From: Candidatus Parvarchaeota archaeon | GTDB taxonomy: Archaea; Nanobdellota; Nanobdellia; WJKC01 | Assembly: GCA_030615175.1 (NCBI GenBank) | Contig: JAUWZX010000001.1 | Coordinates: 460,044 to 524,043, forward strand | Direction: 5' to 3' | Length of the DNA stretch: 64,000 nucleotides | Shown: one piece after another, positions 32,718 through 62,336 of the stretch | How the letters are laid out: every line of letters begins with the position of its first letter | Numbering within the stretch: position 1 is the stretch's first letter | Position numbers and translations under genes: made by a program | Notes under the pieces: model-generated | The model's database searches: none | What the model saw: only the letters and a program-made list of their open reading frames with translations | What the model was told of the DNA's origin: nothing

Positions 32718-32797
32718 TAATGTTTTAATTAATAATGATTTCTATGCTGTTCTTAATATTACATGGTATCCAAAACGAATGTTCATGAAACCATAAT

Positions 32798-33733: not shown

Positions 33734-33853
33734 AATCTTATTTAAGTTGATCAAGTTATTAAAAACTACGCCATCCTTAAAATCACATGCTGCCTGAAGT
33801 GGTTGCACTGGTTGCCACAAATTAATAAAGGTGGTATTGCTTGAGGATTATTA

Positions 33854-43223: not shown

Positions 43224-43835
43224 ATGATACAGAAAATCACTAAAGAAATAGTGCCTTACGATATACTAATACAAACTTTATGCAAGCTGCCTTATTATGG
43301 ACACGGCAAAGGATGCATAAATCATGGAAAAAAGAAAGGCTGCCCTCCACGAAAAACAATAGAAAAACATTTTAACTTAAATAAAGAATTATTCGTGATA
43401 TACACTAAATACAAAGTAGGAGAATTCGCGGAGAAAATGAGAATAAGACATCCAGAATGGACTGAGAAAGAATACCCTGACAAACAGGCAAGAAAAAAAG
43501 AACACATACTAGAAGAAATATTAAATAAATTAAGAGCAAAGCATCCGGACTGGCCGGAAACATACTACCAAAAGAAAATAACGAGTACTTGGAATTCATC
43601 AAGACAATGGTATAATCCCAGACGATGGCAGCAAACAGCAAGAAAGCAGCATGAAAAGGAATTAAAGAAATTAAAAAAAGAAGGAATAATAATTAATAGA
43701 TGCCCAGAAGCATTAGGAATAAATATTACGGGCTTAATGGCGAATATTGGAATTAAATTAAACTGGCAGTGGCCGCCAGAACATAACAAAGAAAACAAAA
43801 CTTACATAATTTCAATAGCAGGATATAAAAAGTAA
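43224..43835 (+). CDS. hypothetical Cys-motif protein (203 aa), possible metal-binding
   Basis: LCKLPYYGHGKGCINHGKKKGCPP cysteine cluster. The rest is charged and helical. Confidence 0.5.
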   Translation: MIQKITKEIVPYDILIQTLCKLPYYGHGKGCINHGKKKGCPPRKTIEKHFNLNKELFVIYTKYKVGEFAEKMRIRHPEWTEKEYPDKQARKKEHILEEILNKLRAKHPDWPETYYQKKITSTWNSSRQWYNPRRWQQTARKQHEKELKKLKKEGIIINRCPEALGINITGLMANIGIKLNWQWPPEHNKENKTYIISIAGYKK

Positions 43836-43909: not shown

Positions 43910-44521
43910 ATGAAGACTCGTAAAGGAAAAAAGGCATTAGTCATAAACCATAACTGTTCTGTAATAAAAGAATTAATAGATTTACTTAACTTAGAAGGTT
44001 ACTCTTCACTTAAATTAAGTTACAATAAACTAAGAGGAGTTAAAGCAGAAAATTTTAATGTAGTCTTCTCAGCAGGCGGAAAAACAAAAATAACTAATAG
44101 CACTGAACTAAAGGATGAATTAAGAATCTGGAAAGAATGCCAAGAAAAGGACATACCATTGATGGGCATTTGTCATGGAGCCCAAATAGGAGCTTATTAC
44201 TCAGGCGGTAAGTATTCTAAATTAAGAGTTGCCCGCAAAGGAATCTTTGATGATTACAAAGTTAAGAAAGATGACCCAATACTGAAAGGAATTAAAAAAC
44301 TGGTTGCAATAGACTGGCATGAATATGGAATAAACAGTGTTGGAAAAAAATGGGATATTATCATGACTGATAGTACTGGCGAGATTCAAATCGCAAAACA
44401 TAAAAATTCAAGAGTTTACTTAATTCAATTCCATCCAGAGTTAAAGAGACCGAAGAAGGGAAAACAAAAAACAAATGCTGAACTCATTATTAATAATTTT
44501 CTAAAAATTGTTAAAGAATAG
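43910..44521 (+). CDS. class I glutamine amidotransferase-like protein
   Basis: Nucleophile elbow MGICHGAQ and IQFHPE His-Glu motif. Confidence 0.7.
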   Translation: MKTRKGKKALVINHNCSVIKELIDLLNLEGYSSLKLSYNKLRGVKAENFNVVFSAGGKTKITNSTELKDELRIWKECQEKDIPLMGICHGAQIGAYYSGGKYSKLRVARKGIFDDYKVKKDDPILKGIKKLVAIDWHEYGINSVGKKWDIIMTDSTGEIQIAKHKNSRVYLIQFHPELKRPKKGKQKTNAELIINNFLKIVKE

Positions 44522-45012: not shown

Positions 45013-45333
45013 ATGAAGTATTTTTTAGTATACAATAATTCTGAGAATAACCCTGTTATTGCTCAAATACGTTTGAATAAGGAACCAGTAATTGGTACAA
45101 GAATCTTATTCTATGATAAGGACCCAATGCTGGATTTTGAAGAAGAAGTGACAGGAGTAAAGAATGATTGCTTAAAAAACATAGACTACGCAAGCATTTA
45201 TAAGATAACCAAGAAATTAATTCACGATAATGGCATAATTGAAATAAGGAAAACAAAGAATTTCAGAGAAGAACCGAATTCAGAACTGGAAAGAAAGTTA
45301 ATAATGCTAAAGCCAAGCAACCACTCTAGTTAA
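45013..45333 (+). CDS. hypothetical protein (106 aa)
   Basis: ORF only. Confidence 0.45.
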   Translation: MKYFLVYNNSENNPVIAQIRLNKEPVIGTRILFYDKDPMLDFEEEVTGVKNDCLKNIDYASIYKITKKLIHDNGIIEIRKTKNFREEPNSELERKLIMLKPSNHSS

Positions 45334-46042
45334 GAATCCTTGTTAAATCAAATTTTTTGCCATCAAATTCCCTTGTAATCTCGAAAAAATTAATTCCACG
45401 CTTATCAATATACTTTAATGAATAAGGAATGTCAGCGAAGATATTCAATTTCTCTAAATTTTTAATATTAAACCATTTATTAAGCCTGTCAACAGTCTTC
45501 TTTTTCAACTCACCAGCAAATTCATTACACTTGAAGACATAGAATAAATGATGAGAATGAATATCATCCTTATTATACGTTCTCATTGAGTAAATAATTT
45601 TAAGCTTTAAATCCTTAGGCACGTAACCAGTTCTCTCAATAGTTTGCCTGACAGCGCTTTCCTTAATTCCTTCCCCAAAACGCACTCTGCCAACAACACT
45701 AGTAGCCCAAACCCCTTTAAACGGCTCTCTTTCAAGCCTTGATAACAAAATCTTACCCTCCTCCCTAATAATCACTCCGGCAATAACAAATGGCTGCTTA
45801 TGAACCCCCATGTCATTTAAGTCAACATAAATCGCTAATTCATTGCCAGTATTAGTTAATGAATACAAACCATCCTCATCCTTTTTTATAATACCAAGCT
45901 TAACTAATTTATTCAAATGATAGTTGAAGTGATTAGAACGAATATTACTATCCTGCAACTGTGAAAAACTAAGTCCAGACGCATACATTAATTTCTTAAA
46001 AATGTTCTTTCGAACATCATGATTTAATAAATTTAACTCCAT
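45326..46042 (-). CDS. wHTH + degenerate Nudix domain regulator, paralog 1
   Basis: N-terminal wHTH (LSFSQLQDSNIRSNHFNYHLNKLVKLGIIKK). C-terminal Nudix fold with box GRVRFGEGIKESAVRQTIERTGY, where the RE-x2-EE glutamates are mostly lost. Confidence 0.65.
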   Translation of the reverse strand: MELNLLNHDVRKNIFKKLMYASGLSFSQLQDSNIRSNHFNYHLNKLVKLGIIKKDEDGLYSLTNTGNELAIYVDLNDMGVHKQPFVIAGVIIREEGKILLSRLEREPFKGVWATSVVGRVRFGEGIKESAVRQTIERTGYVPKDLKLKIIYSMRTYNKDDIHSHHLFYVFKCNEFAGELKKKTVDRLNKWFNIKNLEKLNIFADIPYSLKYIDKRGINFFEITREFDGKKFDLTRILN

Positions 46043-47922: not shown

Positions 47923-48180
47923 CTAATCGAATAATTCTGATATTAAGTCCTGTATTTTCATTAGTGAGGATTGCACTCCCTTAACGTCACTAATGGAATC
48001 CATGGCAACTTCACCAACTTGAGTTTCATTAGTTATCATTCCTGTCACTGCCTCGTAAACACCGCTTACCTGCTCGCCAAGGGAGTTTAATAAAGGGATT
48101 ATAACAAACAACCCAACAAATAATATAATAACACCAATCCAGACAGTTACTATTAATTTTATCATGCTCTTCTTATTCAC
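47923..48180 (-). CDS. 85-aa single-pass membrane protein, translationally coupled to the giant gene
   Basis: N-terminal TM helix LIVTVWIGVIILFVGLFVIIPLL. Its start overlaps the giant ORF stop by 4 nt. The C-terminus SSLMKIQDLISEL resembles the giant-protein tail SLELMIQDLSDIL. Confidence 0.65.
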   Translation of the reverse strand: MNKKSMIKLIVTVWIGVIILFVGLFVIIPLLNSLGEQVSGVYEAVTGMITNETQVGEVAMDSISDVKGVQSSLMKIQDLISELFD

Positions 48181-51100
48181 ATTAATCCCTCCATTAAATC
48201 ATATACTTTAACAAGTATGTCTGATAAGTCCTGAATCATTAATTCTAGACTATTATAAATGTAATTAACATTCGCTTCTGACGGCTGGTCCTTAACAGTA
48301 GTGATATATGTTTTCAAGTCATCAGCCCTGTTAATTAAGTCATGGTAACTATCATATATAACCTGCCACTCTGCCAGTTTACCAGTTTCTCCCACATCAT
48401 TATAGTAACTAATAACGCCCAGTAAGTCCAGTAGACTATTATTAAGTTCTTTATTAAATGAGGTAAGCCTGGCATCTAACTCCTCTAACTGCATTTTATA
48501 AGCCATGGTCGGGTTATCATCCTCTGTTATGAATTTTGAAATGCACTTATTGTTAATGCATACAGGTATTGCCTTGCCCAGAGTGCATTCAGTAATCACT
48601 GAAGGACAGATAGGGTTAAGTTCAGCCAGGCTCTTAGTGATTGCACCGCAACCAGAGTAACACATGCAGTCATCATCAGTAACGCATCCTAACTCAACTT
48701 CTTCATCTATAACGTAAGTAATATTGCTTTCATCAACTTCCTCATCAATGCACATGTTATCTGAGCAATTCATGCCAGCGGGGCAGCCAGCATCTAAACA
48801 GCAGTTAAATGAAGTTTCGTAATCCTGTACTACGCCGTCACCGCAAGTTGCTTCATCAACGCATGAAATCTCTAAAGGTGAAATTAAATCACAAGTTCCA
48901 ACCGTGCAGGTACAGTCCAGACAGCATGCTTCAGATGTTTCACTTGGACTGCAGATGCCGTCACCGCAGTACTCTTCTGCACAAATAAAGTCCTCTGGCT
49001 TAATGAAGAATAATATATCCCATCCAGTGATTGTCTGTGATAAGGCAGTGTAAGGTAGGCAAACGCCGGTCTCGCAGCCAGCATCTAAACAGCAGGTTTC
49101 AGGTGTTTCCCCTGCTGAAACAAGCCCGTCACCGCAGAAAGCATTATTCATTGGAACGCAGCCCTTAACATTAGCATAAGAAGAGGTTAAATTACAAACT
49201 TTGTTACCGCAGTCACAATCATTTGGTGCTGTAACGCAGTTTTCTCCAACACTTGGCGAGCAAATGCCATTAGTAGCGCATACCTGAGGCGAGCAGTCAT
49301 AAGAGCATGAAGTGCATTCTCCAGGACCGCATTTCTTGTCACCGCAGCATGATTCAGCTCCTCCAGGGCACTCGAATACTGGCACGCAGCCCATTTTATC
49401 AGCTCTTACATTATCAGGGTCGCATTCAATGCTGCTAGGACAGAAGCAGGCAGGTGAGTTAAGGCAATTATCTCCTAAGCCGGGACTGCATATCTTTGAT
49501 GAATTAACAAATCCCTCTACCGTGATGCAGCCCATTAAGTCAGCGCTTGGAGCTACTGCGCCGTCAGAGTGAACACCGCAATTAAATCCTATAGGGCAAA
49601 CACAGTCTATTGGGTTTGCGTAACAGTTTTCTCCATAACCGCATCTGTAATCAATAATGTTTTCATAAATAACGCAGCCCTGCAAGTCAGTTTTTACGCT
49701 GTCAGGATTGCAGTATGAATCTTTAGGGCAGCGAGCGCAGTCAAGTGAATTCATGCAATTCTCAGTTCCATCGCACACGCCGTCATTACAGACTTCACCG
49801 GAAGGGCAGTCATCTATTTTTAATTCAATTTTGTAAACACAGCCCTTGAAATCAGAATCCTTGCTTCCAGGATTGCATTCAGCTCCTGATGGGCACGCGC
49901 AGTCAATTGACTTGCAGTTCTCTCCGAAGAAAGTGTCGCAGTAATCATCCCCTTCTTCAAAATCGTAGTCAAGCATGCATCCCATGAAGTCCGCGCTTGA
50001 GTCTTTTGGATTGCATATGAATCCTTCAGGGCATTCGCAGTCGCTTGAACTTAAGCAGTTCTCGTTAGGGTCGCAAACATTTTTCCCTCCAACGCATTTA
50101 ATATCCTGGCACCACCCAGTGTTTTGTTCTGTTGTATTCATCATTACTCCTGAAATATCATACATTGTGGTTAATATCATGTTCTCGCACCAATTCCTTC
50201 CAGCGCTTTCACAGTTTTCTTTAGTGTAACAATTCCAGTATTGTTCATAACCGCATGTCGGGCAGGTATAGTCTGTGCACCATGTCTCACACCAGTTACC
50301 ACTCACATTAAGGCATTCTGATTCAGTGAAGCAGTTCCACGGCATGCTTGAACTGCAGGTCGGGCAGGTATAGTCGCTGCACCAGGAGCCCCATTTATCA
50401 CTGCACCAGTTACCTTCATTATTAACGCACTCGCTTTGAGTATAGCAGTTCCATGGCGTGCTTGAACTGCATGTTGGGCAGGTATAATCTGTACACCATC
50501 CGCCCCACATATCAGAGCACCAGTCGCCATTTATTCCTTCACAGTCTTTTTCACTGGCGCAGAGCCATACCTGTTCATTGCTGCACACAGAGCACGCGTA
50601 CTTATCACACCAGGAGCCCCACTCGTCAGAGCACCAGTTAGCTTCCGCTCTCTCGCACTCGCTTTGAGTATTGCAGTTCCATGGCAGGTTTATTGAGCAC
50701 TTAGGGCACTCATAGTAACTGCACCAGTCACCGCACCAGTAACCGCCTGCTGATGTGCACTCAGAAGCTGTTGAACAGAAATCAAGATAATCCTTACTGC
50801 ATGATATACATTTTTCTGACTGGCACCAACCGTTCTTTTCATCACCGCACCAGTTTGCTCCAGCACCCTTGCATTCAAGTTTTGTTTTACAATTCCATGA
50901 CTGGTATTCTAAGCACGTTAAACAAGGAGTTTCCTGACAATAATTATCACACCAGTAATTATTATTTACTATGCAGTCATCTTCAGTATAGCAATTCCAT
51001 GGCATGCTTGAACTGCATGTTGGGCATTCATAGTCGCTGCACCATCCGCCGTAATGACTTTCACACCATTTAGCTCCTACATTAGTGCATTCCTGTTTTG

Positions 51101-54100
51101 AGAAGCAGTTCCACGGCTCGCTTGAACTGCATGTTGGGCAGGTGTAGTCGCTGCACCATGTGCCGCACCAGCTTCCTTCATTATTAATGCATTCGCTTTT
51201 TGTATAGCAATTCCATGGAGTATCCTTTGAGCATGTAGGGCAGGTATAGTCACTGCACCAATTGCCTCCCCAATTATCAATACACCACTTACCGCCAACA
51301 CCTTCACATTCATCTTTTGAATAACAATTCCACGGCTCTGATTTCTTGCACGTTGGGCATTCATATATTGATTTCTGGCACCAGCCGCTCGTGAATGATG
51401 TTGCATTAGCACTAATGCTTTCACACCAGTTACCGCCAGCGCTTTCACATTCATTCTTTGTATAGCAGTTCCATGAACTTGCTGCTGAGCAAATGCCAGC
51501 GCATATGTAGTCACCATAATCATTTATTTTACAGAAAGAGTCACCCCAGCACGCGCATTCAGGGTCAAAGCAGTCAACTAACCCGTCATTATTATCATCT
51601 ACCCTGTTACTGCAAACTTCTGTTACTGCTCCGCAAGACCATGACTGGCACCAACTACTCCATGCGTCAGTGCAATAATAACCGCCAGCGCTCTTGCAGG
51701 ACTCTTTTGTATTACAATTCCATAATTCATCTGAACTGCAGGTTGGGCATTCATAATTGCTGCACCACGTGTCGCACCAGTTTACTCCAGCATTACTGCA
51801 GTCCTTTTCAATGTAGCAGTTCCACGGCATGCTTGAACTGCAGGTCGGGCATTCGTAGGAATCACACCACGTTCCGCACCAGTAACCATTATTAGAAGTG
51901 CATTCTGTTTCTGTCTTGCAGTCCCATAAGTTTTCAGAACTGCATTCGCTTGCACAGTAATAAAACCCTTCAGCATCCTTTTTGCATGACTTGTCGTTAG
52001 GGCACGCGCAGTCCTCATCATTACAGTCTATTTTAGTATCCTTATCATTATCTAATCCGTCACCGCATATTTCGTATAGTTTTGTTTCACCGCAAGGAGA
52101 GATTTGACACCAAGTGTAGCCGTATTCATTAGTGCACCAGTAACCTCCAATGTCAGGGTTAGTGCATTCTGTTTCTATATTGCAATTAAATAAATCATCT
52201 TTACTGCATTGAGGGCATTGGTTTGTCTGGCACCATGAGTATTCTTCATAGTATTTATCCGTACACCAGTATCCTTCTGCTCCACTGCATTCTGTTTCAG
52301 AGTAGCAGTTCCATATGTTTGTTGAACTGCAGTCAGAACAGTATTGTGATAGAGTGCAGTAAGGACTGCAAGTTGAGCATACATTAGTGCACCATGTTCT
52401 ACTTACTCCTTCGCACTCGCTTTGAGTGTAGCAGCTCCAGTAATTGCCTTCAGTGCATTCTGAACAAGCATTTGTCTGGCACCAGGCGTAATCTGCACCA
52501 CCGCACCAGTAACCATTATTAGAAGTGCATTCTGTTTCAGAGTAACAGTTCCATATGTTTGTTGAACTGCAGTCGTAACACCATTGAGGGTCTGTGCAGT
52601 AAGGCTCGCATGTTAGGCAGATGTTTGTGCACCAATCCCCTCCTGCCCCTTCACATGATGTCTGGTCTTTGCATTTCCAGTAATTATTCGAGTCACATGT
52701 TGCGCAAGTATCTGTCTGGCACCATCCTGGACTCCATTCATCAGCACACCAGTGACCGCCTGCATTCGTGCACGTTGTCTGCGTGTAACAGTTCCATACA
52801 TCAGTGGAACTGCATTGTGGGCATGAGCCTATGGTCGTGCACCAGGGATCGCATGTTAGGCAGATGTTTGTGCACCAATCCCCTCCTGCTGTTGTGCATG
52901 TTGTTTGGTCTTTGCATTTCCAGTAATTATCCGAGTCGCATACTGTGCATTCGTTTGATTGGCACCACCCTGTTCCGCAACTTGAATCATAATCATAAAG
53001 GCACCAGTAGCCATTATTAGAATTGCATTCTGATTCAGTGTAGCAGTAACTTACTTGACTGCCTGTACTGCAACTGCAGTCATAATTAGCGCACCAGCCG
53101 GTTCCACCGCAACTGCCAGTGCACCAGTAATAACCTGTTCCAAGACCTTCACAATCTGTTTGATTATAGCAATACCAGTAATTCGTTGTTGAACATTCAT
53201 ATGCTGAAGTGCACGTGACACTGCAGCAGTTATAAGAATCCGTTGCTGTTAAGTAAGTTCCAGAGCAAGTCTCTTCTGGTGAGCACATGTCTCCTCCCTG
53301 CTCTGAGCATGTTTTAGGGCAATCCGTGCTGCTTGATGCATAAACATCGCCTGAGCAGCAGTATCCTGAGTACTTATCAATGTTTTGGCATTTGCACCCG
53401 CTTGAAGGTATTACTCCTTCAGTGCAGTTAGACAGTTCCCCTGTTTCAATGCATTGACCCATGCTGCATGTTTTTCCGCTTGCAGTGCAGTTCTCTTTTT
53501 CCCATGAACTCCATACTGAGTGGCTGCATCCTCCATTAGCGCATGTGTACAAGTGTCTTTCCTGAACAACTTTGTCATTATAGCAGGATGGTTCTCCTAT
53601 GTATACTTCGCCGCCGCATTCAGCGTCAGTAGTGCATGAATTAATAGTGAATGTTAGGTTCTGCGTGCTTACTTGACTGCTCGTGTCTGTTGCCTCGACA
53701 GTTATTGTATGCGTTCCAGTAATGTAAGTTGAGACAGTTGTATTGTAATCGCAGCTCGTGCCTGAACAGGTTATTGTCACGCCTGATTGGAATGCCCAGT
53801 CCCCGTACCACCTGGCACTGCTGATTCCAATGTCATCAGTTATTGTAGCAGTTAAATTCATTTCCAGTCCAGCGTACTGGGTTGATGGCGTAAGGCTTGC
53901 CGTAACTGAAGGATAACTGTCAAGAATGCATGCTTTTAAGATAGAGTCATAAACATAATCTGTTGCGCAGTCTGCACTGGAATTGGCGTAGTAGCACTCG
54001 TGAGTTGTTAAGTCGCAGTACCTCACTGCATCTGCTCCTGAGCTTGAATAATTCATGCTGTACATGTTATTGCACATTAAGTCAGCATTGCATCCTGACA

Positions 54101-54440
54101 GGCAGTCAGCGCTTCGGCAGTGGCAGCCCCAGCCATAAGTTGCATCTGTATATTTTGCGTAAGGGCAGAAATAACCTTCACTATCACAATAATGATGATA
54201 ATAAGTGCTGCATTGAGTTTGAGAGCAGTCTGAAGCACAAGTATCACAATTACTTGCTGTAATACAAGTATTACTGTCAGTGCACCAGTGTGCTCCAGCG
54301 GTTTCACAATCAGTTTGTGTTGTACAAAAGTCAAGTGTTGCATTAGAACAAGAAGTATTATCTAATGCATCCGCGAAGACGGTGTTAATAATGGCAAAAG
54401 TAGTAATTATAAATAATAACAGAATCTTCTCCTTGTCCAT
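48177..54440 (-). CDS. giant secreted cysteine-repeat protein (2087 aa)
   Basis: Uninterrupted 6.26-kb ORF. Signal peptide ILLLFIITTFAIINTVFA-DA. One Ig/PKD-like segment. About two dozen modules of roughly 40 aa of the form C-P-T-C-S-x4-W-N-C-Y-T-x2-E-C-x4-G-x-W-C-x-D-x-W-x2-W-C-x2-Y-x-C. A second type of Cys module follows, and the C-terminal ~120 aa are Cys-free and helical. Confidence 0.85.
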   Translation of the reverse strand: MDKEKILLLFIITTFAIINTVFADALDNTSCSNATLDFCTTQTDCETAGAHWCTDSNTCITASNCDTCASDCSQTQCSTYYHHYCDSEGYFCPYAKYTDATYGWGCHCRSADCLSGCNADLMCNNMYSMNYSSSGADAVRYCDLTTHECYYANSSADCATDYVYDSILKACILDSYPSVTASLTPSTQYAGLEMNLTATITDDIGISSARWYGDWAFQSGVTITCSGTSCDYNTTVSTYITGTHTITVEATDTSSQVSTQNLTFTINSCTTDAECGGEVYIGEPSCYNDKVVQERHLYTCANGGCSHSVWSSWEKENCTASGKTCSMGQCIETGELSNCTEGVIPSSGCKCQNIDKYSGYCCSGDVYASSSTDCPKTCSEQGGDMCSPEETCSGTYLTATDSYNCCSVTCTSAYECSTTNYWYCYNQTDCEGLGTGYYWCTGSCGGTGWCANYDCSCSTGSQVSYCYTESECNSNNGYWCLYDYDSSCGTGWCQSNECTVCDSDNYWKCKDQTTCTTAGGDWCTNICLTCDPWCTTIGSCPQCSSTDVWNCYTQTTCTNAGGHWCADEWSPGWCQTDTCATCDSNNYWKCKDQTSCEGAGGDWCTNICLTCEPYCTDPQWCYDCSSTNIWNCYSETECTSNNGYWCGGADYAWCQTNACSECTEGNYWSCYTQSECEGVSRTWCTNVCSTCSPYCTLSQYCSDCSSTNIWNCYSETECSGAEGYWCTDKYYEEYSWCQTNQCPQCSKDDLFNCNIETECTNPDIGGYWCTNEYGYTWCQISPCGETKLYEICGDGLDNDKDTKIDCNDEDCACPNDKSCKKDAEGFYYCASECSSENLWDCKTETECTSNNGYWCGTWCDSYECPTCSSSMPWNCYIEKDCSNAGVNWCDTWCSNYECPTCSSDELWNCNTKESCKSAGGYYCTDAWSSWCQSWSCGAVTEVCSNRVDDNNDGLVDCFDPECACWGDSFCKINDYGDYICAGICSAASSWNCYTKNECESAGGNWCESISANATSFTSGWCQKSIYECPTCKKSEPWNCYSKDECEGVGGKWCIDNWGGNWCSDYTCPTCSKDTPWNCYTKSECINNEGSWCGTWCSDYTCPTCSSSEPWNCFSKQECTNVGAKWCESHYGGWCSDYECPTCSSSMPWNCYTEDDCIVNNNYWCDNYCQETPCLTCLEYQSWNCKTKLECKGAGANWCGDEKNGWCQSEKCISCSKDYLDFCSTASECTSAGGYWCGDWCSYYECPKCSINLPWNCNTQSECERAEANWCSDEWGSWCDKYACSVCSNEQVWLCASEKDCEGINGDWCSDMWGGWCTDYTCPTCSSSTPWNCYTQSECVNNEGNWCSDKWGSWCSDYTCPTCSSSMPWNCFTESECLNVSGNWCETWCTDYTCPTCGYEQYWNCYTKENCESAGRNWCENMILTTMYDISGVMMNTTEQNTGWCQDIKCVGGKNVCDPNENCLSSSDCECPEGFICNPKDSSADFMGCMLDYDFEEGDDYCDTFFGENCKSIDCACPSGAECNPGSKDSDFKGCVYKIELKIDDCPSGEVCNDGVCDGTENCMNSLDCARCPKDSYCNPDSVKTDLQGCVIYENIIDYRCGYGENCYANPIDCVCPIGFNCGVHSDGAVAPSADLMGCITVEGFVNSSKICSPGLGDNCLNSPACFCPSSIECDPDNVRADKMGCVPVFECPGGAESCCGDKKCGPGECTSCSYDCSPQVCATNGICSPSVGENCVTAPNDCDCGNKVCNLTSSYANVKGCVPMNNAFCGDGLVSAGETPETCCLDAGCETGVCLPYTALSQTITGWDILFFIKPEDFICAEEYCGDGICSPSETSEACCLDCTCTVGTCDLISPLEISCVDEATCGDGVVQDYETSFNCCLDAGCPAGMNCSDNMCIDEEVDESNITYVIDEEVELGCVTDDDCMCYSGCGAITKSLAELNPICPSVITECTLGKAIPVCINNKCISKFITEDDNPTMAYKMQLEELDARLTSFNKELNNSLLDLLGVISYYNDVGETGKLAEWQVIYDSYHDLINRADDLKTYITTVKDQPSEANVNYIYNSLELMIQDLSDILVKVYDLMEGLM

Positions 54441-54819: not shown

Positions 54820-55686
54820 CTAATGAAGAATTAGGCACTTAAGGTAGTCCTTGCCTGTTCTTTGTTTTAGTAATTTTTTCCACGCGTTCTCCAGAGTCTT
54901 AGGCTTGAATTCAGGAGGTTCATTACCATTTAACCGCGTGTAAGTTGGCGAGTAAAGAGAGATTTGCAGTATATTAACTTTTTCAGGCCGTTGTATCACC
55001 ACGTCAAATAAGTCCTCTAAATCCAGTAAGTCTTTCTCGTCCTGTATTAAGTCAATTAAGTAAATTGAATAATCATCAAGCACGTCCTCCATGTACTCTA
55101 AGTTCTCCAACTGCTTGTACCAAATCTTGCCTGGCAGCCCGGTATTTTCCTCAAAATTCTTTTCACTTATCCCTTTAATGCACATCTGGAATTGCACGTT
55201 TGACTGATTGATTAATTCTTCCTTATGAAGCTTTCTCGTTAAGTTAGTGTCAATGTTTAATCCGTATTCATGAGGGAATTCACGTATTATTTTGTACAGG
55301 AATTGCGGGAAAAGTGTTGGTTCTCCTCCACTAATCCTTAATGCATTAACATCTTCATTCTCATTTAAGTAAGTCACTACTTCATTGAGTACCTGATTAA
55401 CTGGTTTATTAATCCCCCTGCTAGCATCCTTGTTCTTGTCATCAACATAGCAGAACCAGCAGTTCATATTGCATTTATTAACCTGGCTTGTTAGAACCTT
55501 GTTCGTTTTATAAGGGCTTAAGCCAAGTTTTCGCGATGCCACGAATGGAACCCTGCCAAATTCTTTCTTCTTCTTATTAATATTCCACATGTAATAGTAA
55601 ATCCTGTAAGTATCATTTATTATATCACCGCTTTTCTTAATATCCTCTTTCTGTTTTCCTTCATTAAAGTTTGTTAAATAAACCAA
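54820..55686 (-). CDS. radical SAM enzyme, paralog 2 (288 aa)
   Basis: CNMNCWFCYVD (C-x3-C-x2-C) and ISGGEPTLFP (GGE SAM motif). Aligns with the 377-aa paralog along its length. Confidence 0.75.
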   Translation of the reverse strand: MVYLTNFNEGKQKEDIKKSGDIINDTYRIYYYMWNINKKKKEFGRVPFVASRKLGLSPYKTNKVLTSQVNKCNMNCWFCYVDDKNKDASRGINKPVNQVLNEVVTYLNENEDVNALRISGGEPTLFPQFLYKIIREFPHEYGLNIDTNLTRKLHKEELINQSNVQFQMCIKGISEKNFEENTGLPGKIWYKQLENLEYMEDVLDDYSIYLIDLIQDEKDLLDLEDLFDVVIQRPEKVNILQISLYSPTYTRLNGNEPPEFKPKTLENAWKKLLKQRTGKDYLKCLILH

Positions 55687-55754
55687 TTCAATGATTTTTA
55701 TCCTATCTTTCTTTTAATACATTTATTTAGTTTAAAATAATGATTCCAAGCCAG

Positions 55755-56471
55755 TCATCTAATAATCTTGGTTAAATTAAATTTCTTGCCATTGAACTCT
55801 CTTTCAAGCTCTAAAAAAGTAATTCCACGCTTATCAATATACTTCAAAGTGTAAGGAATGTCAGTGAAAATATTAAGCTTCTTAACATCTTTAATATTAA
55901 CCCATTTGTTAAGCCTGTCAGGAGTTTTCTTTTTCAGTTTGCCGGAAAAATCATTACACCTTAAAACATAAAACATGTGATGAGAATGAATATTATTCTC
56001 TTTATTTGTTCTTATTGAGTAAATAATTTTAAGCTTTAAATCCTTAGGCGCGTAACCAGTTCTCTCCATAGTTTGTCTGACAGCACTTTCCCTTACTCCC
56101 TCCCCGAAATGCATTCTACCCACCACGCTTATAGCCCACACGCCCTTAAATGGTTCCCTCCCAAGCTTTGATAATAAAATCTTATCTTCTTTTCTAATAA
56201 CCACTCCTACAATCACGAAAGGCTGCTTATGTACTCCCATCTCATTTAAGTCAACATAAATCGCCAGTTCTTTGCCAAGATTGCTTAATGAATACAAGCC
56301 ATCCTCATCCTTTTTTATAATACCAAGCTTAACTAATTTATTCAAATGATAATTAAAACGATTAGAACGAATATTACTATCCTGTAATTGTGAAAAACTA
56401 AGCTTTGACTTATACATTAATTTCTTAAAAATTTTCTTACGGACATCATGATTTAATAAATTTAACTCCAT
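55755..56471 (-). CDS. wHTH + degenerate Nudix domain regulator, paralog 2
   Basis: 238 aa, collinear with 45326..46042. Long identical nucleotide runs near the 5' end of the gene. Confidence 0.65.
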   Translation of the reverse strand: MELNLLNHDVRKKIFKKLMYKSKLSFSQLQDSNIRSNRFNYHLNKLVKLGIIKKDEDGLYSLSNLGKELAIYVDLNEMGVHKQPFVIVGVVIRKEDKILLSKLGREPFKGVWAISVVGRMHFGEGVRESAVRQTMERTGYAPKDLKLKIIYSIRTNKENNIHSHHMFYVLRCNDFSGKLKKKTPDRLNKWVNIKDVKKLNIFTDIPYTLKYIDKRGITFLELEREFNGKKFNLTKIIR

Positions 56472-56536
56472 GTAAATTCTTTTGGATGAAGTTACTAATA
56501 AATTTAACCATTTTTTTAAAAAAAAATAATAATGAT

Positions 56537-56893
56537 TTAGATAATGAATTCTAGCATAGTAACATCATCATTAACTGTTACTTGATCTCCATATATGCTT
56601 CTTAATTTTTTAACTAGGTTTTCTAAACCATCACCCATGTATTCCTCTGGCACGTTTTTTAACAACGTTTTTTGTTTGTCAACCAATTTAAGTGTTAAAA
56701 CTGTCAGCGCTGTTTCAGGATTCTTACCAACCGTGATGTCAACAAGGCTTCCAATTTTGTAATCCTGGTTGTCAAAATACTTTGTTCCATACCTTAATTC
56801 ATACCACGCGCTCTTAACTTTAATTTCTTCTTTTATGTAATCACTCCATTTCTGTTCGTCTTCTCTTTCCCATAAATTAAATTTTGGTGTCAT
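56537..56893 (-). CDS. small ASCH/PUA-like domain protein (118 aa) - tentative
   Basis: Size and pattern (...LKLVDKQKTLLKNVPEEYMGDGLENLVKKLRSIYG...VTMLEF) resemble ASCH-fold proteins. Judged by eye only. Confidence 0.35.
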   Translation of the reverse strand: MTPKFNLWEREDEQKWSDYIKEEIKVKSAWYELRYGTKYFDNQDYKIGSLVDITVGKNPETALTVLTLKLVDKQKTLLKNVPEEYMGDGLENLVKKLRSIYGDQVTVNDDVTMLEFII

Positions 56894-56988
56894 AAAATTC
56901 CTTTAATTTAATGATTAATAAATAGGTTTTCTCAAAAGAATTTGACTCAAAAAAATTTAAAGAATAAATAAAAGAAAAAAGTTTTTTT

Positions 56989-58122
56989 TTAAGCGTTTGC
57001 TAAAATGTCTTCAATAATGCTTGGTCTTGATATTTCCTTATAATGCTTTCCGAACTCTTCAATGCATAATCCGTCCATTACTTGCTCGCTTCTGGCATAG
57101 TAATCATTCCATTCACTTACTGCTTCATCTATTTTATCACCATATCTTTCTTTCACTGGACCGTAAGGACCAATCTTTAATATATGCATGAAAGGAATTA
57201 TCTTCCTGCCATAATCCTGCGCTAATTCATTCATAAAGCCTTCAAGTGTTTCAGGATTTGGATTAATAATGTATGCATAAGTCCTGATTCCATTACTTAA
57301 TAATTTCTTAAAAGTGTATAATTGCTCTTCAAGCAATTCCCTTCCCTGCTCCGCGTTTCTTCCTATATTACGAGCCAGGTTCTCCGGGTCGCTTCCCTTA
57401 AAGCAGTAAAGAACGTTGAAATTCTTATACTTGCTTACTTGTTCAAATAAGTCTTCTTGCATTTCCTTGTTCTTAATCCATCTGTTCCATGCATGACCTG
57501 TTGTGCCGTTACAGTCAGATTGTACTGATACTTTCTTGCTTAAACCATATTCTTCCAATAATTGCAGTACTTCAAGCCATTGTTCAGGCGCTAAAGTTGG
57601 TTCTCCTCCACTAGGCCTGAATTGATTCAATGCTACTCCTTCATCATTTTTTCTTTCACGGAATTTAATGAATGAATCAATTATTTCACGCATACTGAAG
57701 TATTCAGCCCCATGGTCTGCTCTGCCATTATTATTGAACCTGTCTACGAAACAGAACTTGCAGTTAATATTGCATCCTTTTAATTGGTAGATGAAAACGT
57801 TAGTGTATTCTTCTATTATTTCTCTCGGCACGTCCTGCAATCTTGCAGTGTTGTACGCACCTGTCGATTCTATTGCCCAGAAATCCATGTCAAAAGGTAA
57901 TACTTGATTATTCTTTGTTGCAAAGTACTCGTCAAGCTGGTAGTCCTTCAAGTTTGTTTTAACTCTGAAGAAGTCATTAATGCTTCCCTTGACATTGCCT
58001 TTAGTTTTATCCAAGTCCTTCTGCTGCTCGCTGCCTGCAAAGTTAGTTAATAAGTACTTTCTAACACCGTCTTCAATCTTCATTACTCTATGCCTTAAAA
58101 GTGTTGGTAGTGTCCTCGTCAT
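56989..58122 (-). CDS. radical SAM enzyme, paralog 1 (377 aa)
   Basis: GCNINCKFCFVD (C-x3-C-x2-C) and PSGGEPTLAP. N-terminal extension of about 100 aa. No C-terminal SPASM-type Cys cluster. Confidence 0.75.
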   Translation of the reverse strand: MTRTLPTLLRHRVMKIEDGVRKYLLTNFAGSEQQKDLDKTKGNVKGSINDFFRVKTNLKDYQLDEYFATKNNQVLPFDMDFWAIESTGAYNTARLQDVPREIIEEYTNVFIYQLKGCNINCKFCFVDRFNNNGRADHGAEYFSMREIIDSFIKFRERKNDEGVALNQFRPSGGEPTLAPEQWLEVLQLLEEYGLSKKVSVQSDCNGTTGHAWNRWIKNKEMQEDLFEQVSKYKNFNVLYCFKGSDPENLARNIGRNAEQGRELLEEQLYTFKKLLSNGIRTYAYIINPNPETLEGFMNELAQDYGRKIIPFMHILKIGPYGPVKERYGDKIDEAVSEWNDYYARSEQVMDGLCIEEFGKHYKEISRPSIIEDILANA

Positions 58123-58216
58123 ATCCCTCTCCCCTCCTTAAATTAATTTAGAATCTTTTAGTATGAACTGTTTTAAATTCATTTATTTAATCTAAAATAC
58201 TCTTTAGAAAATGGTA

Positions 58217-59020
58217 TTAAATTAATCCAAGCTCTTTTGCAAAGTCAAAGGCTTGTTTGCGCTCCCTGCAAGGAGGACACCAGTCATTGTATGGAATGCC
58301 TTGCTCCGCGTGAGTTGGTTTAGGATTCCAGCAAGAGTAACTTGCATTAATCGCGTTAATATAGTCTTCTGGCGCGCAGTCAATAGCGAGCGCTAAAGCT
58401 TCATTCTTAGATAAGCCGAGCCAAAGGTAAGGCATGTAGCAATGAACTATATTACCCTTAACTTGAACGTCATACAATTGGTTAAGTAATTTATAATTCT
58501 TAACATCCCCATCTCCAAAGCTCTCATCAGTAGTTACGTTGCCGTTGCTTAAGATTGTGAATACAGGGTCATCATCTTCTCTGTACCTATCATCATTCAG
58601 GCATCGGGCTAGTTTATAGCATTCATCCATCATACTAATATTGCGCAGAGTGTACACTGACTTAGTTGATGCTTGCTTAGCGGATTCCTTATTCTTGAAA
58701 GTTTCTTTAATATACTTTGACGGGATAGGCATCACGTACTCTATTAATTTAAGCACTGAGTCAGGATATACTTCTGAAGCAATACTTAATACTTTTGTAA
58801 TAGCTGTTTTTTCCTGTTCATAATTGCCCTGCCCTCTGTTAAAGAATACTGGCTGTATTTTATCAGCGCCGAAGAATTTCATTACTGGTATTACTCCTAC
58901 AGAATCAAGACCTCCTGAAATGCAGTGCACTACGCTTGCATTCTTTAGCATTCTTCTCGCGTGCCTGATTCTGCCTTCAAGTCCTTCCTTATTCTTGAAA
59001 TATTCATGCATTAAAACCAT
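58217..59020 (-). CDS. QueC-like PP-loop ATPase (divergent 7-cyano-7-deazaguanine synthase family)
   Basis: PP-loop HCISGGLDS, FFNRGQGNYEQE (compare the QueC DYGQRH-x2-E), TLRN, and a C-terminal SCW...CPPCRERKQAF Zn-Cys cluster. Confidence 0.65.
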   Translation of the reverse strand: MVLMHEYFKNKEGLEGRIRHARRMLKNASVVHCISGGLDSVGVIPVMKFFGADKIQPVFFNRGQGNYEQEKTAITKVLSIASEVYPDSVLKLIEYVMPIPSKYIKETFKNKESAKQASTKSVYTLRNISMMDECYKLARCLNDDRYREDDDPVFTILSNGNVTTDESFGDGDVKNYKLLNQLYDVQVKGNIVHCYMPYLWLGLSKNEALALAIDCAPEDYINAINASYSCWNPKPTHAEQGIPYNDWCPPCRERKQAFDFAKELGLI

Positions 59021-59078: not shown

Positions 59079-60185
59079 TTAGTAGCGGTTCATTTTAGGA
59101 ATAAGTTCAGAAATTTTTGCTCCAGCAACGCATATTACATTATCCGCTCCCCCATAATAAACAATGAGTTTATCACTCTTGTCCAAAACTTTATTTGAAT
59201 CCTTGTATCTTGGAACTGCTCCGCAAGTAAATACTACATGATTTACCCAGCCATACTTTTCATACTCCTCTTCCGGCTCTAAGATTGGAGGCGAGACGTA
59301 AAGCTTCTTAGAAGGGTCTTTTAAGTCAAGAAGCATTGTGAATAAGAAGTATTTATGATTTTGTAAAACACCACTTTTAGCCAGAGAATCTTTTTTACCT
59401 CCTCTATCCACTATTTCTTTTCCATGACAGATAATCAGCCATCCATATTTTGTCTTTATTACCTGCGCTCCTGCACCAATTTTATCGCAGCCTTTTGAAC
59501 CAATATCTTTTGCCTTCAGTAAAACATCCCCCACCCCGCCTGTCCAGGGGAACTTTAATTCATCAGCATAAGTTATGCGCATATCTGGGTATGGGCGATG
59601 AATTAGTACATATTTATTATTAATTTTTTCTGGTATGAGCACCCCATCCTTATTGTAACCTTTAAAAGCAAGCCCTTCTTTATTCCATGCCCTGGTCCAT
59701 TCTTCAGTGCCGGCACATTTATCTGCTAGGGAAATAAATTCATCTAATGCGATTGAGGCAAAAGCTAATTGTGATTCACCACCTACATTACGATTACCGC
59801 TATTACCGGTATAGGAGACGTAAAGTCTGTCATTGAACACTCCTAACATATGAGGGTCTTCACAACCTCCTTTTTCATAAGGAAGTTTCTTATAAATTTC
59901 ATCTGTAGGTAATTCGTATTCTTCAGTAGGTATAAAAATAGGATTATCAAGTCTATTGTCAATATTTATTCCATCTTTACTTGTGGCAAGACCCCAGCGG
60001 GAAAGCATGTCCTTCTTGCCTATGGCCCTGTAGATAATGTAGGTTAATCCTTTTCGATAAGCGCCGCAGTTAAAAACAAGTTTTGATTCCCATTCATGAT
60101 TTTCTATTGGTTTAAGAATTGGATTCTTTAAAATCCGACTTAACCCGCTCCTAACTGATTTTATCATGGTGTTCTCCTCATTCAT
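59079..60185 (-). CDS. GH130-family glycoside phosphorylase/hydrolase (DUF377-type beta-propeller)
   Basis: NPILKP...WE...VFNCGA...IYRA, GGCEDPHM, NKDGVLIPEKINNKY, GWLIICHG, LLDLKDP, YGWVNHVVFTCG and VYYGGADN. Confidence 0.7.
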   Translation of the reverse strand: MNEENTMIKSVRSGLSRILKNPILKPIENHEWESKLVFNCGAYRKGLTYIIYRAIGKKDMLSRWGLATSKDGINIDNRLDNPIFIPTEEYELPTDEIYKKLPYEKGGCEDPHMLGVFNDRLYVSYTGNSGNRNVGGESQLAFASIALDEFISLADKCAGTEEWTRAWNKEGLAFKGYNKDGVLIPEKINNKYVLIHRPYPDMRITYADELKFPWTGGVGDVLLKAKDIGSKGCDKIGAGAQVIKTKYGWLIICHGKEIVDRGGKKDSLAKSGVLQNHKYFLFTMLLDLKDPSKKLYVSPPILEPEEEYEKYGWVNHVVFTCGAVPRYKDSNKVLDKSDKLIVYYGGADNVICVAGAKISELIPKMNRY

Positions 60186-61084
60186 AACTTATTTAAAAAA
60201 GGTCCTTTAATGTAATTAAGGTTTATTTCAAAATAAATCTTGACATTGTATTCTTTCTCCAAGCTTAATGCTTTTCGAATGGTTTCTACAGTGACTTGTG
60301 GGTTAAACGCGCCAGGACTACTTCTTAACCAGAAACAGCAATTCCTAATACGATGTTTTTCAGCAAATCTTAAAACTTTATCCCAGTTTTCTTCATGAAT
60401 TTCTGGGCTTACACTGTAGATAATGTTGCCTAATCCCTTTACATGTTTTTTAATACTTTTATCAATTCTGCATCCAGGTTTCCTGTACCTTGCTAAATCT
60501 ATGTTTAATTTGATTTTTGGATTATTTCTTACTTTAGCGAAGAAATAATTTTCAGCTCCAATTTGGTAACTCCTGTCTTTGCCTGTAATATTGATTAACG
60601 TGAAATCAATACTTGCTTGATTCACTAATTCAAGGACCTTATCAGTCACGATAGAGTATAATCCATCATTTTTTAATTTAATGTCTATCTTTGGATAAGT
60701 CTCATGTCCTTCGAAAAGACTTAAAACTTCTTCTAATTTATCTAATGGCTCTTGCGGTGGGTGTCCTGTTTTAATGATGCCGTTAATTGACATTACGTCA
60801 AATTCGACAAAAATCGGCTTTAAATCAACAGCCTCTTGTATGGCTTTCAACGAATTTTGCTTGGCATGAGCATCAAGACCTCTGTGTACTCCGAATCTTT
60901 GCTCAATTGTCATTCTGATGAATAAATTATAAGTAATATTCTGTCCGTCATTTTCATCACTAACTGCCCGCAAATACGTTTTGGGTTTGCCTTCTTTATC
61001 ATACTTCCTGAAACGCTTGCTATTCGCTTTCTCAATCTTCCTTAATTGTTCAAGCTGTAACATTCTTTCAAGCCCAACCATCAA
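60182..61084 (-). CDS. GDPD/PLC-like phosphodiesterase TIM-barrel protein (tentative)
   Basis: FGVHRGLD...NSLKAIQEAV...VEFDV resembles the GDPD HRG...N-x-L-x-A...E-x-D pattern. 4-nt overlap with the GH130 gene. Confidence 0.4.
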   Translation of the reverse strand: MMVGLERMLQLEQLRKIEKANSKRFRKYDKEGKPKTYLRAVSDENDGQNITYNLFIRMTIEQRFGVHRGLDAHAKQNSLKAIQEAVDLKPIFVEFDVMSINGIIKTGHPPQEPLDKLEEVLSLFEGHETYPKIDIKLKNDGLYSIVTDKVLELVNQASIDFTLINITGKDRSYQIGAENYFFAKVRNNPKIKLNIDLARYRKPGCRIDKSIKKHVKGLGNIIYSVSPEIHEENWDKVLRFAEKHRIRNCCFWLRSSPGAFNPQVTVETIRKALSLEKEYNVKIYFEINLNYIKGPFLNKL

Positions 61085-61355
61085 AGGAGTATTTATGTTT
61101 ATACTCTTTTAAATAGTTTCTCATCACAGTTGAATAGAAATCTTTATAAAAAAAATTAATAAATAGTGATTCCAAGCAGAGTAATCAAGAAATATTTTCT
61201 TTCCATAAAATTTATAAAGAATTTAAAACTTTCTTCTTCTTTTTAGGAGCCTTTTTCTTTTTCACCATCTTTAATTAACACCTCAATAATTATTGTTGCG
61301 CATAAGACTATAGATTTGAATAAATTTATATATGAAGTGAATTATCAAGTGATGA

Positions 61356-62336
61356 ATGATGAGTGAAGCGTTAATAACCGGGGCTAATGGGTTTTTAGGT
61401 TCTCACTTAACTGACTTATGCATTAGCAAGGGCTTCATTGTTCACGCATTAGTAAAGCCAGGAACATTACTTGATAATTTAAGCCAGCATAAAGGCAGTG
61501 ATAAATTAATGATTCATGAATGCGACTTAACTAATAATGATTTATTGAGTGAAATAATTAAGGATTCAAAACCTGGATTAATTTTTCATTTCGGAGCTCA
61601 GCCTCACGTGATTCCTTCATGGAAGGATCCTGCTGGCACAATAAATGTTAATGTTATTGGAACCATAAACGTGTTCGAGCCATTGAAGAAGTATAAAATT
61701 AATGCTCGAGTCATCATTGCTTGCTCCAGCGCTGAGTATGGTTCAACTGCAAAGCTTAATCGCCCGCTAAGAGAGTCAGACCCTTTATTGCCATTGCATC
61801 CTTATGGGGTTAGTAAGGTTGCGGCAGAACTGCTTGCGCGCCAGTACTTCATTAACTTCGGTATTGAAGTGATTAACTTAAGATTCTTTAATCAGACAGG
61901 GCCTAGGAAGGTTAATGATGCCTGCTCTGACTTTGTGAGGGCTGTTGCGAGGATTGAGTTAGGCTTGGATGAGCCGGTAATCAGGGTTGGTAATCTAAAC
62001 TCTTTCCGCGACATTACTGGTGTTCAGGATTCAGTTAAGGCAATTTGGCTGGCAGCCAGTAAAGGAGTGCCAGGCGAGACGTATAATGTCTGTTCTGGCA
62101 GGAAGATTCATGTCAAGAGTGTGTTAAACACTGCTTTGAGTTTCTCATCTAAGAAAATAAAAGTGGTTGAGGATTCTCCTGTTAAGTTAAGGAAGACTGA
62201 TGAGGATGTAATAATTGGTGATAATTCAAAGATTACTGCCTTAGGCTTTAAAGTCTCCCAATCCATTAATGAATTTTTAAAGGACATGTTTGATTACTGG
62301 ATTAAGTATTACAGTAATGAATTACATGCTTCTTAG
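61356..62336 (+). CDS. NAD-dependent sugar-nucleotide epimerase/dehydratase (extended SDR)
   Basis: ITGANGFLGSHL Rossmann motif and YGVSK catalytic Y-x3-K. Confidence 0.85.
   Translation: MMSEALITGANGFLGSHLTDLCISKGFIVHALVKPGTLLDNLSQHKGSDKLMIHECDLTNNDLLSEIIKDSKPGLIFHFGAQPHVIPSWKDPAGTINVNVIGTINVFEPLKKYKINARVIIACSSAEYGSTAKLNRPLRESDPLLPLHPYGVSKVAAELLARQYFINFGIEVINLRFFNQTGPRKVNDACSDFVRAVARIELGLDEPVIRVGNLNSFRDITGVQDSVKAIWLAASKGVPGETYNVCSGRKIHVKSVLNTALSFSSKKIKVVEDSPVKLRKTDEDVIIGDNSKITALGFKVSQSINEFLKDMFDYWIKYYSNELHAS

Follow-up and report, generated by a model that had tools for sequence, protein, structure and literature searches.

The QueC superfamily was the subject of a signature analysis published in 2026, which drew a picture of the QueC fold as repurposed beyond queuosine (PMC13329287). 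In Escherichia coli QueC, Tyr35 and other signature positions were tested by mutation and are essential, as is Arg99 of the VPxRN motif (PMC13329287). Two described branches of the fold are useful for comparison. Cap9, a protein-deazaguanylase of about 185 residues, has its gene beside that of a CD-NTase and has retained Y/F-x-Q and YxDC, and cluster 4 of PF06508 is a mainly proteobacterial group with the motifs YGQ(x)6E and CH(x)5CxxCxGCxK that lies beside PfkB/nucleoside-deoxyribosyltransferase genes and has been proposed to act in purine salvage (PMC13329287). Among radical S-adenosylmethionine (SAM) enzymes, the archaeosine enzyme RaSEA has ArcS as its partner, and the two co-occur (PMC11298593). 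Here we analyze a run of five genes that includes a QueC-like ATPase and two radical-SAM enzymes. The run lies in a 64,000-nucleotide stretch of a Candidatus Parvarchaeota archaeon (contig JAUWZX010000001.1, positions 460,044 to 524,043), referred to below as the window.

All five genes are encoded on the minus strand, and the open reading frame (ORF) listing contained each of them at the positions and with the motifs originally quoted. In the direction of transcription they encode a QueC-like PP-loop ATPase of 267 residues (58217-59020; PF06508, SGGLDS); a radical-SAM enzyme of 377 residues, rSAM_377 (56989-58122; PF04055, GCNINCKFCFVD, SGGEPTL); a protein of 118 residues without fold assignment, p118 (56537-56893; no family match, self-match only); a protein of 238 residues that combines a winged helix-turn-helix (wHTH) with a Nudix domain whose catalytic box is degenerate, wHTH-Nudix (55755-56471; PF00293 and DUF7347/HTH_20); and a paralog of rSAM_377 of 288 residues with a TTG start, rSAM_288 (54820-55686; PF04055, CNMNCWFCYVD, ISGGEPTL). 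The original prediction had suggested that these genes form a single module for base, nucleotide, or nucleic acid modification, possibly serving in defense, under a nucleotide-sensing regulator. Four of its five gene descriptions hold, the exception being the ASCH/PUA-like label given to p118. The single module does not. Our reading, to which we assign a probability of about 65%, is that the five genes are real but do not constitute one system and that they form an accidental same-strand run in a compact DPANN-type genome. They are probably neighbors by accident because they do not occur jointly in any other genome examined.

Loci of the rSAM_377 family were gathered by exact-protein look-ups and a scan of GTDB species genomes (25 loci); keeping those with <90% identity left 24 distinct loci including the window. 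Flanks of up to 10 kb were examined, and all ORFs within them were searched with a profile hidden Markov model (HMM) of the QueC-like protein and, using phmmer, with each window protein. The QueC-like protein, p118, wHTH-Nudix, and a second radical-SAM paralog were found in none of the 23 other loci within ±10 kb, and the two genomic contexts recovered for close relatives of the QueC-like protein were without a radical-SAM gene. Joint occurrence of the radical-SAM, QueC-like, and 118-residue genes had been named beforehand as the point on which the module would stand or fall, and no such co-occurrence was found. Unbiased clustering of neighbors revealed no universal partner of the radical-SAM family in the 24 distinct loci; the largest neighbor "clusters" were antisense shadow ORFs within the radical-SAM gene itself. 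The distributions of the two families are also discordant. The rSAM_377 family, with at least 31 proteins after clustering at 90% identity, is common in DPANN-type archaea, whereas the tight QueC-like clade comprises five sequences.

The local signals point in the same direction for most of the run. Intergenic gaps are 58-95 bp, and there are no overlaps among the five genes. Downstream of rSAM_377 there are oligo-T runs that resemble archaeal terminators (T6 and T7, within 56894-56988 on the minus strand, with TTTAAA upstream of p118), and another such run lies downstream of p118 (T9, within 56472-56536 on the minus strand, followed by TTTAAA upstream of wHTH-Nudix). Because oligo-T runs flank it on both sides, p118 is probably its own transcription unit. 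The gap that separates the QueC-like gene from rSAM_377 (58123-58216, minus strand) lacks T runs of at least five, and the rSAM_377 ATG is preceded at 9-15 nt by GGAGGGG, a strong Shine-Dalgarno sequence. This is the sole junction compatible with co-transcription, and in this archaeon the two genes may be on one transcript. Bicistronic units, the QueC-like gene with rSAM_377 and wHTH-Nudix with rSAM_288, could be the most that the run contains, and a five-gene operon is unlikely. The signals (TATA-like boxes and oligo-T runs) were read by eye from the sequence. TATA-like matches carry little weight because the DNA is AT-rich (35% GC).

The QueC-like protein had been described as a divergent, not orthodox, member of the QueC superfamily, and this was confirmed. 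It matched the Pfam family PF06508 over the whole profile with 33 bits (gathering cut-off 22) but scored only 14.1 bits against a cut-off of 150.3 with TIGR00364, the QueC equivalog model. As a single query it had no match among PDB sequences. A word-indexed search found two relatives. When 1.84 billion representatives were searched exhaustively with HMMER, 23 proteins reached E ≤ 1e-3, and four of these were close (37-54% identity). The tight clade thus consists of five sequences, window protein included, and is very rare. A profile built from this clade (A2) matched the QueC structures 2pg3/3bl5 with E = 2e-16, Cap9 (9nto_B) with E = 7e-16 and 62 bits, and QatC (9vlk) with E = 3e-3.

The ATP side of the protein is that of QueC, and the substrate side is not. 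The PP-loop motif SGGLDS is kept at residues 35-40, as is the conserved QueC lysine (Lys-205). The YxQxHxxE motif reads NRGQGNYEQE, such that QueC Tyr35 is replaced by Arg-62 (an Arg in 11 of the 13 members aligned) and His39 by Asn-66. VPxRN reads YTLRN, in which Arg-126 and Asn-127 are kept and the V-P is gone, and YPDC reads FGDG, which retains the aromatic residue and the Asp but neither the Pro nor the Cys. The canonical zinc knuckle is C-x8-C-x2-C-x2-C. The window protein has C230-x17-C248-x2-C251, which is three of the four cysteines plus an insertion; its relatives keep all four. Judged from these residues, the protein is a PF06508 member with intact ATP and zinc machinery and what appears to be a rebuilt substrate side, and it is not QueC, QatC, or Cap9.

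Each of these three identities was considered in turn. With canonical QueC (cluster 1 of PF06508; 3BL5, 2PG3) the protein shares a whole-length match at the level of the fold, SGGxDS, the RN of VPxRN, the lysine, and the Cys knuckle with the Arg that follows it. It differs from QueC in having no queD, queE, folE, or tgt neighbors here and in belonging to an extremely rare clade, and canonical membership was rejected on the TIGR00364 cut-off, Tyr35, YPDC, and the four-Cys zinc motif. Cap9 of the type IV cyclic-oligonucleotide-based antiphage signaling system (CBASS; 9NTO) is matched by the clade profile at a score equal to that of QueC, and the Q-x5-E spacing is Cap9-like. However, the QueC-like protein has 267 residues, R-x-Q, and FGDG, and no SMODS/CD-NTase, Cap10, or TGT gene is nearby, so that a Cap9/type IV CBASS identity was rejected. 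QatC was rejected as well, there being no QatC HMM match, the 9vlk match to the clade profile having an E value of only 3e-3, and no QatA ATPase or TatD gene being present among the neighbors scanned. Canonical QueC and Cap9 are the families nearest to the ATPase. Also close in concept is cluster 4, likewise a QueC-fold ATPase that retains the PP-loop, has a variant second motif, and lies in nucleotide-salvage neighborhoods. The present clade, compared with cluster 4 by description only, differs in having NRGQ(x)5E and a canonical-type C-x7/8-C-x2-C-x2-C.

The genomic contexts of the clade are those of nucleotide metabolism. The gene for the 54%-identical relative is followed by a MazG pyrophosphatase gene, and that for the 49%-identical relative comes after an Mbh/Mrp-type operon, with a dCTP-deaminase-like gene facing it; neither has a radical-SAM neighbor. 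A metagenome scan with the tight clade returned no loci, whereas the broader alignment returned 17 loci of an "NRGQ-motif" clade. The rSAM_377 family was never seen in these 17 loci. In the broader clade NRGQ replaces the canonical (D)YGQRH, and the genes often occur as tandem paralog pairs. Loci in which the neighbors were read (L-numbers denote collected loci, with positions within each) are L050:926-6336, L048:1528-4417, L038:5381-8675, L039:1716-5249, L005:3378-4463, and L055:6607-7916. The four larger loci carry genes for Ham1, a thymidylate-synthase-like protein, AAA_17 and PfkB kinases, SLOG, and HD/dGTPase-like proteins, and one of them a TGT-like gene. L050, with PfkB, kinase, Ham1, and ThyA-like genes, is the locus comparable with cluster 4. 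The TGT-like gene is 2 kb away in L039. Taken over all contexts, the neighbors are Ham1/ITPase, ThyA-like, AAA_17/PfkB, SLOG, HD/dGTPase-like, MazG, dCTP-deaminase-like, and, once, TGT-like, which looks like an undescribed association of the QueC fold with nucleotide metabolism. The Tyr-to-Arg substitution, together with relatives beside nucleoside triphosphate pyrophosphatase, pyrimidine-metabolism, and kinase genes, leads us to infer a nucleotide substrate. The enzyme would adenylate and then amidate a nucleotide-type substrate, presumably not free 7-carboxy-7-deazaguanine, at a carboxyl or oxo group.

Both rSAM_377 and rSAM_288 passed PF04055 in Pfam. All labeled members of the rSAM_377 family are Nanoarchaeota, Woesearchaeota, Pacearchaeota, or Aenigmarchaeota, the closest relatives being labeled Woesearchaeota or Nanoarchaeota. 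In the family alignment (A1) a single CX3CX2C cluster motif (C117/C121/C124) and SGGEP are invariant, as are several Arg and Lys residues. The N-terminal domain of about 105 residues is family-conserved at Gln-33, Asp-36, Arg-53, Lys-55, Phe-77, Asp-78, and Trp-82. An AlphaFold2 (AF2) model of rSAM_377 had a predicted local distance difference test score (pLDDT) of 93.7. A Foldseek search of the PDB with this model returned PflA (3cb8, E = 1e-6) first and Bacillus subtilis QueE (5th5, E = 3e-5) second, followed by NifB and anSME, with viperin at rank 20 or lower. The template modeling (TM) scores for 5th5 were 0.36/0.52 at 16% identity, a similarity that is that of a generic compact radical-SAM core. 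Among viral predicted structures (BFVD), only generic radical-SAM cores matched rSAM_377.

The likeness to PflA and QueE lies in their being the best structural matches and in a single CX3CX2C motif, a GGE-type SAM motif, and the absence of a SPASM/twitch cluster. These compact enzymes are only 14-16% identical to rSAM_377, with TM scores of at most 0.44 normalized to the query, and have no counterpart of its 105-residue N-terminal domain or its long C-terminal helices. None of 29 family members examined reached a curated NCBIfam cut-off. The weak matches that recurred were viperin (28 of 29) and NrdG2 (26 of 29), with a best E value of about 2e-8 and, where shown, covering the cluster-binding N-terminal part. 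The best QueE model, TIGR03963, gave 20.9 bits with the radical-SAM pair against a cut-off of 260, in the cluster region only, and matched 13 of the 29 members weakly. The view that the pair does not look like textbook QueE is borne out by these scores, and an identity as orthodox QueE was rejected on the missed cut-offs and on the lack of a queC or queD neighbor in the 24 distinct loci. The suggestion that their cluster box recalls viperin fared less well. The viperin model NF038283 matched the pair with 30 and 39 bits (cut-off 180), over profile positions ~9-91 of 281 and hence about 80 residues round the cluster box. With matches this partial and a Foldseek rank of 20 or lower, a viperin/pVip identity was rejected.

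The partners known for related enzymes were not found beside the family either. None of the 24 distinct loci contained a glycyl-radical enzyme, queC, or queD neighbor. With regard to a RaSEA-like partnership, no TGT/ArcS-family match was present in the window ORFs scanned, nor was such a neighbor recurrent in the 24 loci. Typical neighbors are genes for the CCA-adding enzyme, OapB/C, Rpr2, deoxyhypusine synthase, proteasome, beta-CASP nuclease, Orc1/Cdc6, RtcB, and eIF5A, and distant family members likewise lie among housekeeping genes. Within these searches the family was confined to DPANN-type archaea, and it is apparently a normally solitary, housekeeping one. Since several Arg and Lys residues are invariant and the neighbors include information-processing genes (CCA-adding enzyme, RNase P subunits with one Pfam match, OapB/C, RtcB, and eIF5A), we infer an anionic substrate. 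The enzyme most likely modifies RNA (tRNA or rRNA) or a nucleotide by radical chemistry, in which case it would use the 5'-deoxyadenosyl radical on that substrate.

Some neighbors recur in subsets of loci: Memo in four (three annotated Pacearchaeota), DUF7768/DUF4406 in three, and a Pop5-like ORF in four. Memo adjoins the radical-SAM gene at L004:5068-7834, L010/L011/L026, L024, and L029, mostly annotated Pacearchaeota; a DUF7768/DUF4406 gene is next in three of the Memo loci, and genes for the CCA-adding enzyme and OapB/OapC lie upstream in L004 and L010-L012, the loci whose upstream genes were annotated. The pairing of Memo with a radical-SAM gene recalls AmmeMemoRadiSam. This identity was rejected, as TIGR04337 was not among the matches listed (the best 25 for rSAM_288 and for the family), Memo adjoins the gene in four loci only, and the window yielded no Memo gene. 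The third recurrent neighbor is a conserved ORF of about 95 residues (KPSMRENKRYLL...VSGTLKG; L028:2843-3136, L030:681-1037, L033:9632-9913, L032:6498-6791). It is directly upstream of the radical-SAM gene in the Nanoarchaeota-type loci L028, L030, and L033, and about 3 kb off on the opposite strand in L032. We take it, from a reading of its sequence and not from a profile, to resemble the Pop5 subunit of RNase P.

The paralogy proposed for the radical-SAM pair was supported by BLASTP, which aligned rSAM_288 and rSAM_377 with 29% identity over 147 residues (E = 6e-11). Of 55 near-invariant family columns rSAM_288 keeps 27 and has lost 28; the cluster cysteines and SGGEP are kept. The N-terminal signature is partly kept, reading YLTNFNEGKQKEDI where the family has LLANFxGTEQQKDI. 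In other genomes rSAM_288 matched only ORFs of the rSAM_377 family (best E = 3e-18). It is a duplicate of rSAM_377 that is specific to this lineage and shortened at the N terminus, and it would be either diverging in function or decaying.

NrtR-type regulators consist of a catalytically crippled Nudix fold fused to a winged-helix DNA-binding domain. The wHTH-Nudix protein likewise combines a winged helix with a crippled Nudix domain, a combination suggestive of a ligand sensor and not of a hydrolase. Its winged helix is at the N terminus, the reverse of the domain order in NrtR. In Pfam, NUDIX (PF00293) scored 37 bits, with DUF7347/HTH_20 at the N terminus. The Nudix box reads GRMHFGEGVRESAVRQTMERTGY, in which REUxEE has become RQTMER; against the consensus GX5EX7REUXEEXGU it is G-x5-E-x7-RQTMERTGY, with two of three Glu residues lost. 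A catalytic Nudix hydrolase was therefore rejected. The earlier description as one of two degenerate paralogs is correct. The other copy lies 10 kb away outside the run (45326-46042, minus strand) and is 80% identical in amino acid sequence; nucleotide identity is 83.5% over 716 bp and stops at the ORF boundaries. That the cluster arose by duplication of a segment was rejected, because the wHTH-Nudix ORF alone was duplicated. Nor does the protein look like a regulator of the cluster, since it is a recent ORF-only duplicate separated by oligo-T runs from the genes upstream of it. The paralog at 45326-46042 has no radical-SAM or QueC-like neighbor. The protein in the run is a freshly duplicated, probably ligand-binding transcription factor, the gene of which would at most be co-transcribed with rSAM_288.

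No Pfam or NCBIfam match to ASCH, PUA, or any other family was found for p118 even at E ≤ 1, and a search by word index, the sensitivity of which is below that of a full HMMER scan, found no homolog other than itself. A single-sequence AF2 model had a pLDDT of 42, too poor for a fold search. The protein is an ORFan, and its former label is not sustained. Two candidates for relatives elsewhere were rejected: the small ORF upstream of the radical-SAM gene in four loci, which is Pop5-like and unrelated, and a gene of 131 codons that overlaps the radical-SAM stop codon in L060, which is also unrelated.

According to the reading that we prefer, then, the genes of the run evolve independently in a compact DPANN-type archaeal genome: a radical-SAM enzyme that would act on RNA or a nucleotide, its duplicate, a QueC-like enzyme that would act on a nucleotide-type substrate, a recently duplicated, probably ligand-binding regulator, and an ORFan. 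Several points weigh against it. The QueC-like gene lies next to rSAM_377 on the same strand, the junction of the two lacks an oligo-T run, and rSAM_377 is preceded by a strong Shine-Dalgarno sequence. Among the structural matches of rSAM_377, QueE ranks second, and a very divergent QueC/QueE pair is compatible with the sequence. The contexts of close QueC-like relatives number two only, on contigs of 9.3 and 7.9 kb, and the co-occurrence result covers at most 10 kb from each gene, with any pairing farther away in those genomes outside its scope. The source genome itself is seen through the 64-kb window only, and the proposals for the substrates of the two enzymes derive from neighborhood and conserved charge.

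An alternative is a lineage-specific pathway of two enzymes, in which the QueC-like protein and rSAM_377, perhaps with rSAM_288, would be co-transcribed and would produce an unusual modified base or nucleotide. The radical-SAM enzyme would build or rearrange a carboxylated heterocycle, and the PP-loop enzyme would amidate or nitrilate the product. Such a pathway is consistent with the layout of the two genes (no terminator-like T-run and a Shine-Dalgarno sequence of the internal-gene type), with the rank of QueE among the fold matches, with a PF06508 protein that keeps its ATP and zinc sites, and with QueC-like relatives in nucleotide-metabolism contexts. It is hard to reconcile with the absence of the pairing from the 23 other radical-SAM loci and from both QueC-like contexts, with the discordant phyletic distributions, and with QueE models far below their cut-offs. 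As the original prediction had pointed out, GTP cyclohydrolase, QueD, and TGT are also missing: no FolE, QueD, or TGT Pfam match was present among the window ORFs scanned, many of which are unannotated. We regard this pathway as unlikely, and slightly more so when it is put in the form that the QueC-like protein and rSAM_377 are co-transcribed and make a new modified purine- or deazapurine-like nucleotide. If it were true, the members of the rare NRGQ-motif clade would be ATP-dependent enzymes of a new class in DPANN-type organisms, which would amidate nucleotides or form nitriles.

It is less probable again that the two proteins are an orthodox QueC and QueE of preQ0/archaeosine synthesis, hard to recognize because DPANN genomes evolve with high substitution rates, with the other pathway genes elsewhere in the genome. 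The full-length PF06508 match above gathering, the match of the clade profile to QueC structures (E = 2e-16), the place of QueE among the top fold matches, and the TGT-like gene 2 kb away in L039 would fit such fast-evolving genes. The curated models do not, with 14 versus 150 bits for TIGR00364 and 21 versus 260 for the best QueE model. The essential QueC Tyr is Arg in the clade and YPDC is lost, and in 24 loci the radical-SAM family is never near queC, queD, or tgt, where QueE should be. A normal DPANN QueC should moreover be common, whereas four close relatives were found in 1.84 billion representatives.

An anti-virus role, in which a viperin-like radical-SAM enzyme would make chain-terminator nucleotides and a Cap9/QatC-like protein would carry out protein deazaguanylation under a nucleotide-sensing regulator, is very improbable: viperin/pVip is the best, if weak, NCBIfam and PADLOC match of both radical-SAM proteins and Cap9 matches the clade profile about as well as QueC does, but the viperin matches are short and far below cut-off, the QatC structure matches weakly, no CD-NTase, Cap10/TGT, QatA, QatB, or QatD gene is nearby, and the radical-SAM family is conserved and solitary among housekeeping genes and not in variable islands. 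PADLOC returned partial pVip matches to the cluster region and a PP-loop-only QueC match, and found no defense system or partner genes. A phage tblastn search yielded no phage relatives and a viral-contig scan no viral-contig relatives, the BFVD matches were generic, and integrase, CD-NTase, TatD, and QatA-type genes were absent among the neighbors scanned.

The window as a whole is archaeal and DPANN-like, as indicated by its GC content, a presumably intron-bearing tRNA, a gene for ribosomal protein L15e, and closest relatives labeled Woesearchaeota or Nanoarchaeota. The contig from which it comes has a length of 726,884 bp. GC content is 30-39%, with no GC or island signature in the window. 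The tRNA (21233-21352, minus strand) scored 41.7 bits with Rfam and was missed by ARAGORN; at 120 nt against a model of 71 nt it presumably carries an intron.

Upstream of the QueC-like gene, across 58 bp without a T-run, is a GH130 beta-mannoside-phosphorylase-like gene (59079-60185), which overlaps by 4 bp a 300-residue ORF (60182-61084) without annotation other than a weak GDPD match. The two face a divergent gene of the GDP-mannose-4,6-dehydratase family, and this sugar-metabolism unit spans 59079-62336. Directly downstream of the run, on the same strand, is a giant ORF of 2087 residues (48177-54440, minus strand). It is extremely Cys-rich, has internal repeats and an N-terminal hydrophobic stretch resembling a signal peptide, and has a GC content of ~0.45 compared with ~0.35 around it.

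A standalone class-I glutamine amidotransferase is encoded at 43910-44521 (plus strand), 14 kb from the QueC-like gene and 0.8 kb from the wHTH-Nudix copy at 45326-46042. Its closest match is GMP synthase subunit A, with 65 bits against a cut-off of 198. It could conceivably donate ammonia to a PP-loop enzyme. The 203-residue ORFs side by side at 43.2-44.5 kb were considered as paralogs and rejected, the ORF at 43224-43835 being unrelated to the amidotransferase. A third Nudix protein, of 315 residues (NUDIX 52.6 bits), is encoded within 31770-33820 (minus strand) and adjoins a carbon-nitrogen hydrolase gene, bringing the Nudix-fold genes in the window to three.

As a five-gene module the run is thus not to be carried forward as a candidate for defense or base modification. 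It yields two uncharacterized enzyme subfamilies of known superfamilies and no system. The radical-SAM family is well conserved, has a unique N-terminal domain, and lies beside genes for translation and RNA processing. It merits attention because it occurs in very small genomes, in which retained genes tend to matter. The QueC-superfamily clade, the substrate-side signature of which has been rewritten, extends the picture of a QueC fold repurposed beyond queuosine (PMC13329287). To judge from their sequences, either subfamily could reveal new nucleotide or RNA chemistry.

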